A DNA stretch of 34,621 bases from Nitrosopumilaceae archaeon. Its GTDB lineage: Archaea; Thermoproteota; Nitrososphaeria; Nitrososphaerales; Nitrosopumilaceae. Below the pieces are notes generated by a model, which saw only the letters and a list, made by a program, of their open reading frames with translations, made no database searches and was not told the DNA's origin. The position numbers and the translations under genes were made by a program. The DNA is taken from the NCBI GenBank assembly GCA_052389415.1, contig JBQTHX010000081.1, positions 1-34,621 on the forward strand. The letters are read 5' to 3'. Below, in pieces: positions 26,989 through 28,530 of the stretch (positions are counted from its first letter, which is position 1; each line of letters begins with the position of its first letter).

Positions 26989-27297
26989 TTAAGCTGCTGG
27001 TTCGGTTGCAGGTTGCGAAGAACTTTCTATGATTTCACCAGAAGCAAATCGTCCGCCCACTTGGGTGATCTTTATTTTTGCATTCTGGCCAGCCTTGCCG
27101 TTTTTAACAAATATCACAAAGCCATCTACTCTTGCGATACCGTCTCCTTTTCTGCTAATTTCCGTTATGGAAACATCATACTCTTTTCCGGTTTCTACAG
27201 GTTTTGGTCCGTCATCAAATCGTCTATTACCGCCATATCCTCTATCTCGGCCATATCCTCTATTGGATCTTCCAAAACCGCCGTCGTTGTAACTCAT
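26989..27297 (-). CDS. Single-TRAM-domain RNA chaperone with RG/Y-rich N-tail
   Basis: PV..G.EYDV.I.....KGDGIARVDGFVIFV...G....KI......FA is the archaeal single-TRAM signature. Confidence 0.92.
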   Translation of the reverse strand: MSYNDGGFGRSNRGYGRDRGYGGNRRFDDGPKPVETGKEYDVSITEISRKGDGIARVDGFVIFVKNGKAGQNAKIKITQVGGRFASGEIIESSSQPATEPAA

Positions 27298-27302
27298 CGT
27301 TG

Positions 27303-27310
27303 CACCTCCT
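27303..27310 (-). promoter_or_regulatory. Strong Shine-Dalgarno (AGGAGGTG) of the TRAM gene
   Basis: AGGAGGTG lies 5 nt before the ATG at 27297. Confidence 0.75.
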
Positions 27311-27439
27311 TTCTGATATTATGATGAATTGCATCTCAATAAGAATGGATGTAAATTGCGATTACGACATAATAATTGACATTACCGCTAAATTGAATCA
27401 TTTCAGCATGCTTAATAATGATGCAAAAACTTGAAGTAT

Positions 27440-27496
27440 ATGGCAAAAGCCAAATCAAAAGCTAAATCAAAAAGCTCAAAAAAATCTAAAAGATAA
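27440..27496 (+). CDS. Candidate 18-aa basic micropeptide MAKAKSKAKSKSSKKSKR
   Basis: ATG...TAA with only K/S/A/R after Met; TATA-like TTAATA at 27412-27417 and a hairpin + pyrimidine tract just downstream. Confidence 0.55.
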   Translation: MAKAKSKAKSKSSKKSKR

Positions 27497-27503
27497 AAAA
27501 TCT

Positions 27504-27533
27504 GACCTGGAAAGGTCCTTTCCTTTTTCCTTA
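27504..27533 (+). terminator. Hairpin plus pyrimidine/T tract after the micropeptide ORF
   Basis: GACCT-GGAA-AGGTC (GNRA loop) followed by CTTTCCTTTTTCCTT. Confidence 0.5.
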
Positions 27534-27615
27534 CACACAAATATGACTTTTTTTCACGAAATTACCGAATACTCTGGTTTTTATGGAGAGACAATCCACC
27601 AATATGTGAAATCAT

Positions 27616-28530
27616 ATGGTTTTACAAACTTTCAATAAAAGTATGCTCTGCCCACGCTGTGGGAAAAATTCGATGGTAACTGATAATACCACTGGTGAAA
27701 GATTTTGTGGAGGGTGTGGGTTTGTTATCACAGAACGTGTTGATGATTCAGGTCCAGAATGGCGCTCTTTTTCAAAGGAGGAATACGATGATAAAAGCAG
27801 GACAGGTTCTCCAACGTCGCTTGCAATGCATGACATGGGACTTGCTACAGTAATAGGTCATGCAAATAAGGACGTAACTGGAAAGCCATTATCCGCTTCC
27901 ATGAGAAGTACGATTGAACGACTCAGAACATGGGATAGCAGAAGTCAAGCACACGAATCTTCAGACAGAAACTTTAGACAGGCATTTAGTGATCTTGGAA
28001 GACTAAAAGATAAGCTTGCACTTTCAGATGCAGTGATAGAAAAAACAGCTTATATTTACAGAAAGGCCCTTGACAAGGGTCTTGTAAGAGGAAGATCTAT
28101 TCCAGGCCTTCTTGCTGCAGCATTATACGCTGCATGCAGAGATAGTGGAACACCCAGAACTTTAAACGATGTCTCTAATGAAATAAATATCAAGAGAAAA
28201 GATGTTTCGCGATGTTATAGGTTACTTTTACGAGAACTTGATCTAAAGATGCCTGTAGTAGATCCAGTAAAATGTATGTCTAGAATAGCAAGCGAAGCAG
28301 GATTGACTGAAAAAGTAAAAAGGCGAGCCCTTACCATCCTAAGTGATGCAAGCAAACTAGAAATTACATCCGGAAAAGATCCTATGGGACTTGCAGCAGC
28401 GGCACTGTATCTTTCATGTGTGTTAAACGGAGAAAACACGACACAAAAAGTTATTGCAATGGCAGCCGGTGTAACCGAAGTTACAATACGAAACCGATAC
28501 AAGGGACTAAAAGAATCGCTTAATATCTGA
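27616..28530 (+). CDS. tfb: Transcription initiation factor IIB (TFB)
   Basis: Zn ribbon CPRC...CGGCG, GPEWRSF B-reader, two cyclin folds, GKDP.GLAAAALY and VTEVTIRNRYK. Confidence 0.97.
   Translation: MVLQTFNKSMLCPRCGKNSMVTDNTTGERFCGGCGFVITERVDDSGPEWRSFSKEEYDDKSRTGSPTSLAMHDMGLATVIGHANKDVTGKPLSASMRSTIERLRTWDSRSQAHESSDRNFRQAFSDLGRLKDKLALSDAVIEKTAYIYRKALDKGLVRGRSIPGLLAAALYAACRDSGTPRTLNDVSNEINIKRKDVSRCYRLLLRELDLKMPVVDPVKCMSRIASEAGLTEKVKRRALTILSDASKLEITSGKDPMGLAAAALYLSCVLNGENTTQKVIAMAAGVTEVTIRNRYKGLKESLNI

Follow-up and report, generated by a model that had tools for sequence, protein, structure and literature searches.

A conserved lysine-rich micro-gene of the Nitrosopumilaceae as the putative source of a free polycationic peptide

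Layout of the micro-gene unit

A 34,621-nucleotide (nt) stretch from a Nitrosopumilaceae archaeon (GenBank assembly GCA_052389415.1, contig JBQTHX010000081.1), here called the window, carries a very short open reading frame (ORF) for a lysine-rich peptide, which has a promoter-like box in front of it and a terminator-like end behind it. We refer to this unit as the micro-gene. A first-pass annotation of the window had described it as self-contained, and all of its elements are found where that annotation placed them: the box, the leaderless spacing and the terminator-like end are all present. The micro-ORF lies at 27440..27496 on the forward strand and consists of 18 codons plus a stop, with the ATG at 27440 and the TAA at 27494-27496 (ATG GCA AAA GCC AAA TCA AAA GCT AAA TCA AAA AGC TCA AAA AAA TCT AAA AGA TAA). 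The encoded peptide, MAKAKSKAKSKSSKKSKR, contains eight lysines, one arginine and no acidic residue; alanine is written as GCA, GCC and GCT, and serine as TCA, AGC and TCT. The host genome is 1.43 Mb long, has 36% G+C and is 94% complete. At this G+C content, an 18-codon open frame is by itself not beyond chance; the conservation described below exceeds chance. It should also be noted that the MAKAKSKAKSKSSKKSKR ORF is the sole ORF made purely of lysine, arginine and small residues in the whole 1.43-Mb genome, and that a model search recovers one copy of the micro-gene there.

Upstream of the ORF is a TATA-like box, GCTTAATA (27410..27417, forward strand), which includes TTAATA at 27412-27417, 28 bases before the ATG. 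Of 56 unique homologous units, 33 have TTAATA at -28, and a shift of one base (-27 or -29) accounts for 5 more (38/56 in total). In the host genome, too, the hexamer is most frequent at -28 before long ORFs (8 of 65 occurrences), with other TATA-like hexamers most common between -28 and -31, as would be seen if the majority of messenger RNAs (mRNAs) were leaderless. The spacing at the micro-gene is therefore the host genome's own presumed leaderless spacing. Just 5' of the box lies the conserved motif CATTTCA (27399..27405, forward strand) with its TTCA core. In an alignment of 12 genomes (A1), T23, T25, C26 and A27 of this motif are invariant and T24 is at least 90% conserved. A related motif, AATTCAA-N-ATGCTTAATA, occurs in loci without the TRAM gene that neighbours the micro-gene in the window. 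Possibly, CATTTCA is a B recognition element or a regulator's site, situated in a promoter region common with the divergent TRAM gene. Units from three genera (g14, g34 and g4; genera carry working labels of this kind, genomes G-numbers and loci L-numbers) carry another box in its place, TATAGAAAT, which is conserved as well and similar to the promoter of a second polycation gene described at the end. The idea of a C/D box was dropped, as the AATGATG beside the TATA box is not conserved in relatives.

Seven bases past the stop, a hairpin with a GNRA-type loop, GACCT-GGAA-AGGTC (27504..27517, forward strand), is followed by the pyrimidine/T tract CTTTCCTTTTTCCTT (27518..27532, forward strand), with T5 at 27524-27528, the presumed site at which transcription stops. 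PMC8716108 presents U-tracts as the archaeal termination signal. The hairpin is among the terminator-like sites of a local scan, which finds 6 in 1.8 kb versus 1.3 +/- 0.9 in shuffles, and it is also part of the minimum-energy fold, whose z-score is -1.54. Among the 56 units, 55 have a hairpin of -3 kcal/mol or lower in the 60 nt past the stop, a count that stands without a null for comparison, and 55 have T5 or longer within 45 bases; the hairpin starts 0-10 bases past the stop. The stem GACC/GGTC is invariant in g1, g6, g9, g11 and g37 and thus shows no covariation in them; in other genera, stems of unrelated sequence occupy this position (GAGG/CCTC, TAAGATA/TATCTTA, GAGATC/GATCTC, GAGATT/AAATCTC). 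The stem GCTTCA/TGAAGC of g14 and g34 has its 5' arm inside the last codons, where a terminating ribosome would cover or melt it. A general terminator of this genome in the form of GACC..GGTC plus T5 was considered and rejected, since the combination occurs in only three other places and is hence specific to this gene. A second hairpin in the window, GGAAAG-GTC-CTTTCC (27509-27523), overlaps and excludes the first and has TTTTT directly 3'; pairing between the A-rich loop and the T-tract is possible in relatives as well.

Conservation and coding signature

A BLAST search with positions 27300-27620 against 40 relatives gave full-length matches in 8 other genomes of the genus and partial matches in 3 other genera. 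All 12 aligned genomes share the frame and the ATG, and in each of them a TAA precedes the same hairpin. The full set of promoter, start codon, frame, stop, hairpin and T-tract is found again in 8 of the genus's 10 other genomes; the two members without the unit are 58% and 69% complete. The first-pass annotation had staked its proposal on a reading frame conserved in relatives, and the frame is conserved.

A covariance model of the transcript part (R1, 12 sequences) was used to search 151 genomes of the family and matches 37 of them at E <= 0.01. A broader model (R2, 33 sequences), searched against 151 genomes of the class, matches 32 at E <= 0.1, every one in the family Nitrosopumilaceae; with strict filters, R2 matches 0 of 70 genomes in eleven other families of the class. 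In the genus g14, 7 of 41 genomes match a pattern for the MAAKKKA start. Altogether, comparable units were read in 49 published genomes from 10 genera (g1, g6, g9, g11, g37, g34, g14, g4, g43 and g38), all belonging to one family. A pattern scan of a named genome collection yielded at least 11 archaeal records with a complete unit; among the matches listed are Ca. Nitrosotalea devanaterra (LN890280.1, locus L078), one metagenome-assembled genome (MAG) of Nitrosotalea, and further MAGs under the labels Nitrosopumilaceae, Nitrosopumilales or Thaumarchaeota. The R1, R2 and spermidine synthase tallies include two unpublished genomes (G100 and G114), which were left out of the models after R1 and of the codon, composition, promoter and terminator counts; no claim depends on them. 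A protein profile of 22 peptides run in six frames against 201 genomes gave no matches, even in the window's own genome, and is uninformative since its positive control failed.

Every locus returned by the model and pattern searches was read, apart from model matches in G241 and G246 and three extra weak ones in G253. Seven model matches proved to be something other than the micro-gene. The one in G011 is a long ORF, and those in G109, G102 and G084 contain no ATG-started lysine-rich ORF. The remaining three are tails of larger proteins, picked up by the nucleotide model of the micro-gene: the C-terminal tail of a pyruvate phosphate dikinase (G135, L189), the N-terminal tail of a 344-residue protein that looks DHH-type phosphoesterase-like by eye (G047, L230), and the C-terminal tail of a 95-residue cysteine-rich, zinc-ribbon-like protein (G143, L229). 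The g34 micro-gene at L186 lies 155 bases upstream of a 462-residue ORF that, by eye alone, looks like a pyruvate phosphate dikinase. The g14, g34 and g4 forms (L181, L183, L184, L186-L188, L194-L200) read MAAKKKAAAK...KASKKK and are 17-28 residues long, and the g37 forms join the MAAKKK start to the TTAATA box and GACC hairpin, thereby bridging the two types.

The composition of the product was counted over 47 unique units, which encode 38 unique peptides of 15-21 residues. These consist of lysine (402), alanine (215), serine (108), threonine (37), arginine (22), proline (10), glycine (3) and one methionine, with none other. Across the family the peptide is 15-28 residues long, the longest forms (up to 28) occurring in g14 and g38; its charge is 8-10 in the forms of 15-21 residues and 11-13 in those of 25-28. 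Mean column identity in the alignment of the peptides (A4) is 44%. Evidently, sequence and length vary widely while composition stays.

Each of 47 unique ORF DNA sequences of 15-28 codons opens with ATG-GCN, and the stop in the 47 units of 15-21 codons is TAA in 45 and TGA in 2. At AAN codons the third base is A in 323 cases and G in 96, and never C or T; at NCN codons it is A (288), C (41), T (58) or G (1), that is, C or T in 99 of 388. Wobble pyrimidines are thus tolerated except where they would turn lysine into asparagine. Within a genus, synonymous switches are seen between GCT and GCA, AGC and AGT, and AAA and AAG, and from TCT to AGT for the same serine; replacements within a genus are confined to serine, alanine and threonine, and lengths always differ by whole codons. 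The start, the frame and the stop are kept, and substitutions are mostly synonymous or conservative. Since the +1 frame is open as well in 46 of the 47 units, openness itself is not the evidence for coding. AAG makes up 77 of 217 lysine codons beside another lysine or arginine codon and 19 of 202 isolated ones (odds ratio 5.3; the genomes are related, and the p-value is therefore too strong). Hence, AAG is favoured at adjacent lysine codons, and long runs of A are limited.

The first-pass annotation had argued from the codons of the single copy that selection acts on the peptide. The codon usage and comparative data of the family favour this as well and point to selection on the peptide, not on the RNA, and we consider it very probable that the micro-gene is a real protein-coding gene.

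Genomic context and the proposed role of the peptide

The neighbours of the micro-gene in the window serve here as context. On the reverse strand at 26989..27297 lies the gene for a stand-alone TRAM-domain protein of 102 residues (PF01938, E 5.9e-15), which is divergent from the micro-gene, and tfb, the gene for transcription factor B, follows downstream on the forward strand (27616..28530; PF00382 and PF08271), starting 120 bases 3' of the micro-gene on the same strand. The first-pass annotation had placed the unit divergent from TRAM and upstream of tfb, and for the window these family matches bear it out. The first 30 or so residues of the TRAM protein form an RG/RGG-rich tail (MSYNDGGFGRSNRGYGRDRGYGGNRRFDDG), and its gene has a Shine-Dalgarno-like GGAGGTG (27303-27309) five bases before the ATG, unlike its leaderless-looking neighbours. 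In g1, g6 and part of g11, the gene divergent from the unit is TRAM; in some MAGs, TRAM lies nearby. The tfb gene is found downstream only in g1, g9 and a few other loci, the neighbours elsewhere being unrelated genes. Among 16 representative loci, the nearest downstream ORF of at least 80 residues is on the opposite strand in 6 (L039, L045, L172, L174, L182 and L184). That the downstream genes change between genera and are often on the opposite strand indicates an autonomous cassette, not a leader of tfb. A leader peptide or attenuator for tfb was accordingly rejected, as there is no conserved co-oriented downstream gene.

The same context bears on the idea that what matters is the act of translating a run of lysine codons and not the peptide, with the ORF serving as a sensor or decoy for the status of Lys-tRNA or aIF5A, or coupling translation to the terminator. 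Lysine codons do dominate the ORF, the hairpin begins 0-10 bases past the stop with its 5' arm inside the last codons in g14 and g34, and in the window tfb is 120 bases away in the same orientation. However, with a downstream gene that is not conserved, there is no common regulated target; AAG is enriched at adjacent lysine codons, where it cuts slippery or stalling A-runs; and the residues between the lysines are also constrained, namely to alanine, serine, threonine and proline. We regard such a translation device as very improbable.

The micro-gene is unannotated and is missed by gene callers. Against Pfam and NCBIfam, a 21-residue TTG-start reading that contains the whole peptide matched 0 families at E values of up to 10. 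Two natural homologues, 20 and 28 residues long, gave 0 matches among the PDB chains, ribosomal ones included, and none of 13 natural forms of 20-28 residues is present in a collection of 15 billion proteins. Searches of the literature on archaeal and Nitrosopumilus small proteins, ribosome structures, maps of transcription start sites and small RNAs, lysine-rich small ORFs and N. maritimus non-coding RNA returned no paper on such a peptide. Supplementary tables of thaumarchaeal small proteins and transcription start sites, which could hold relevant data, are mentioned in PMC12856327 and PMC5069720. In two metatranscriptome runs (with word shares of 0.15 and 0.05), contigs placed at 85% likeness span portions of TRAM and tfb and leave 27299-27583 uncovered; as contigs cannot show absence, they are evidence neither for nor against transcription of the unit.

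These searches also bear on the main rival explanation, a lineage-specific micro-protein bound to the ribosome in a groove of the ribosomal RNA (rRNA) or at the subunit interface. In size, charge and its stand-alone gene, the peptide is like the tiny basic ribosomal proteins overlooked by annotation; the conserved promoter and terminator are in keeping with constitutive expression; and as a rule there is one copy per genome. That a six-frame search of the genome with the eL41 profile (PF05162) gave 0 matches would fit too, although the search is weak, since no control genome passed the cut-off. On the other hand, the peptide matches neither Ribosomal_L41, nor any other Pfam or NCBIfam model, nor any PDB chain; it is rich in lysine, with no aromatic residue and almost no arginine; and the gene was found in only one family of the class, with none in the 70 genomes of other families under strict filters. 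Moreover, positions are not conserved, lengths span 15-28 residues and repeats are gained and lost, which would be untypical of a peptide seated in an rRNA pocket. The first-pass annotation had called the peptide eL41-like in size and charge; an eL41-like identity has no support from the Pfam and NCBIfam profiles, and we take the variation in sequence and length to argue against one fixed binding pocket. Overall, we hold a ribosomal role to be unlikely.

Charge, size and composition are kept while positions are not, which to us suggests a disordered polycation and not a peptide shaped for a single pocket. We tentatively propose, going by the features of the DNA and its relatives, that the micro-gene may be a leaderless gene for a free, disordered polycation that binds nucleic acids by electrostatics; we regard this as a fair possibility that falls somewhat short of being probable. 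Archaeal RNA polymerase would start about 25 bases past the GCTTAATA box, at or beside the A of the ATG, and would yield a monocistronic leaderless mRNA of about 90 nt. Ribosomes would translate it from the 5'-terminal AUG, and transcription would stop at the hairpin and U-tract. With Met1 presumably removed before alanine, the product would be a peptide of about 17 residues with a net charge of about +9, no hydrophobic core and no fixed sequence. It would bind polyanions non-specifically, above all RNA and DNA, and might act as a gene-encoded counter-ion, compaction factor or chaperone, much like a free tail of the histone H1 or protamine type. Similar lysine-rich tracts occur as tails on larger proteins in relatives, which we count in favour of this proposal. 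In part of the family, the peptide may work with the neighbouring TRAM RNA chaperone. Stand-alone TRAM proteins are archaeal RNA chaperones according to PMC5572242 and PMC6705878; the partial linkage to TRAM fits an RNA-related role and proves nothing.

A narrower version of the polycation proposal is that the gene-encoded oligolysine is a polyamine-like counter-ion or chaperone for RNA and DNA that partly replaces spermidine-type polyamines. In six frames, the host genome gives no match to spermidine synthase (PF01564) or S-adenosylmethionine decarboxylase (PF02675), and thus appears unable to make spermidine-type polyamines by the usual route; it has two homologues of pyruvoyl-dependent arginine decarboxylase (PF01862; L201 and L202). 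Across the class, spermidine synthase is matched in 18 of 80 genomes inside the family versus 31 of 70 in other families, and most of the in-family matches listed are weaker (E 1e-20 or worse), many of them in ORFs of 540-820 residues. Nevertheless, a good spermidine synthase match coexists with the micro-gene in four g37 genomes, and neither is present in two other families, which weakens the idea of a polyamine substitute. We therefore think this version improbable.

Several points weigh against the polycation proposal and the coding evidence beneath it. The units behind the coding counts were found with models built from the family and come from kin genomes that are not independent samples; furthermore, the filter fixed the first four codons, required lysine plus arginine of at least 38% and admitted no aspartate or glutamate (asparagine was allowed), so that part of the uniformity was selected. 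Two copies have decayed: that of G149 (L048, G149:C37) has lost its stop and reads through the hairpin for 37 codons, and a second copy in G081 (L206, G081:C4), at the ancestral site upstream of tfb, has lost stop and terminator and runs on for 24 codons. G081 also has an intact micro-gene elsewhere (L037). Adjacency to TRAM is absent in g37, g14, g34, g4 and g43, half of the genera; hence the co-regulation with TRAM that the first-pass annotation had thought possible is at most suggested, by the adjacency of the two genes in g1, g6 and part of g11. As for the binding of nucleic acids, we infer it from composition only. Finally, the first 15 bases of the ORF, ATGGCAAAAGCCAAA (27440-27454), are invariant in g1, g6, g9 and g11, synonymous sites included.

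Whereas ATGGCAAAAGCCAAA stays fixed, the spacer that separates the TATA box from the ATG diverges; ATGGCAAAAGCCAAA can form a 4-bp hairpin, UGGC-AAAA-GCCA, that takes in part of the start codon. This suggests that a constraint at the level of RNA acts on the start of the presumed leaderless mRNA as well. It would also suit a small non-coding RNA with an A-rich 5' part and a 3' hairpin with U-tail, in which the frame is incidental: the possible 5' hairpin appears in the fold, a hairpin with U-tail is a common 3' end of small RNAs, and 46 of 47 units also have an open +1 frame. However, Rfam 15 gives nothing above its gathering thresholds, the two matches (E 6.2 and 9.2) scoring 9.5 and 20.2 bits against the required 428 and 45, and the fold z-score is modest. 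The three-base periodicity, the AAR-only variation, the indels in multiples of three, and the ATG and TAA kept across genera that have diverged in nucleotide sequence all speak against it. In addition, an archaeal RNA that starts with AUG is expected to be translated as a leaderless mRNA. A non-coding RNA is thus, in our judgement, a very improbable explanation.

The Nitrosopumilaceae rank among the most abundant archaea of marine, soil and freshwater habitats and have a central part in nitrification. The micro-gene is a blind spot in the gene inventory of this well-studied group because it is absent from protein databases and would be missed by standard proteomics: trypsin would leave only fragments of one to three residues. 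Should the peptide prove abundant, it would be an extra polycation to be reckoned with in models of archaeal chromatin, RNA chaperoning or ribosome composition. At 17 residues after removal of the methionine, it can be synthesised, which makes the main hypotheses directly testable.

Comparison with known systems

Among known tiny basic proteins, eL41 (PF05162), bS22, bL37 and bTHX are ribosomal and sit in a groove of the rRNA or at the subunit interface. The micro-peptide resembles them in its length (they have about 17-30 residues), its extreme positive charge and its stand-alone short gene, and they too are routinely missed by gene callers and tryptic proteomics. In contrast to them, it is made of lysine, alanine and serine instead of being arginine-rich, has no profile or PDB match, and varies freely in sequence and length within one archaeal family.

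A second set of comparisons comprises the lysine/alanine-rich nucleoid proteins that resemble the tail of histone H1 (the chlamydial proteins Hc1 and Hc2, AlgP and the lysine-rich tails of some HU proteins) and the protamines. Common to these polycations and the micro-peptide is a low-complexity make-up of lysine with alanine, serine, threonine and proline, free of acidic and hydrophobic residues, in which charge is kept over sequence and binding to nucleic acids is presumed, by analogy, to be electrostatic. Unlike in Hc1, Hc2, AlgP and the HU proteins, the 'tail' is here the whole protein, 15-28 residues long with no globular domain. Furthermore, unlike those of Hc1, Hc2 and AlgP, the micro-gene is archaeal and leaderless, and the likeness is one of kind, as homology cannot be established for such sequences.

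With the attenuator leaders trpL and hisL, the micro-gene shares a very short ORF rich in one amino acid and a terminator hairpin with T-tract close behind. It differs from them in having no conserved co-oriented downstream gene, in being a cassette that moves between contexts, and in the AAG codons that break runs of the repeated codon.

Look-alikes are also found in bacteria. Among the matches listed, L053, L088, L089 and L096, from MAGs of Magasanikbacteria, Betaproteobacteria, Gammaproteobacteria and Parcubacteria, are ORFs of 20-28 codons that encode mostly lysine, alanine and small residues; one contains valine and leucine as well, and another two glutamates. Each has a Shine-Dalgarno-like site upstream, and a G+C-rich hairpin with T-tract downstream. 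The Nitrosopumilaceae micro-gene is archaeal and leaderless whereas these have Shine-Dalgarno sites, and common descent is beyond test on such sequences. Taken together with these bacterial ORFs, the micro-gene suggests that oligolysine micro-proteins form a recurrent, undescribed class.

A further parallel lies in the same genome (G000:C63:4092-4199, reverse strand), where a second polycation gene encodes 35 residues of lysine, arginine, alanine, serine and proline (MATKKRS...) with two SAPKRKAAKRR repeats and no Pfam match. Its homologues (L209-L223 and L227) span nine genera and 24-114 residues with a varying number of repeats, and a conserved upstream box, TTTAGTTTAAC-ATAGAAA, marks the family. 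For one member of 107 residues, only low-complexity look-alikes were found, including tails on HU- and MC1-domain proteins. Like the micro-gene, this second family is very basic, of low complexity and variable in length, and it has its own conserved promoter, of a type similar to that of the g14, g34 and g4 units. Unlike the micro-gene, it is arginine-rich, built of tandem repeats and encoded at a separate locus, and the two families are present in the same genomes.

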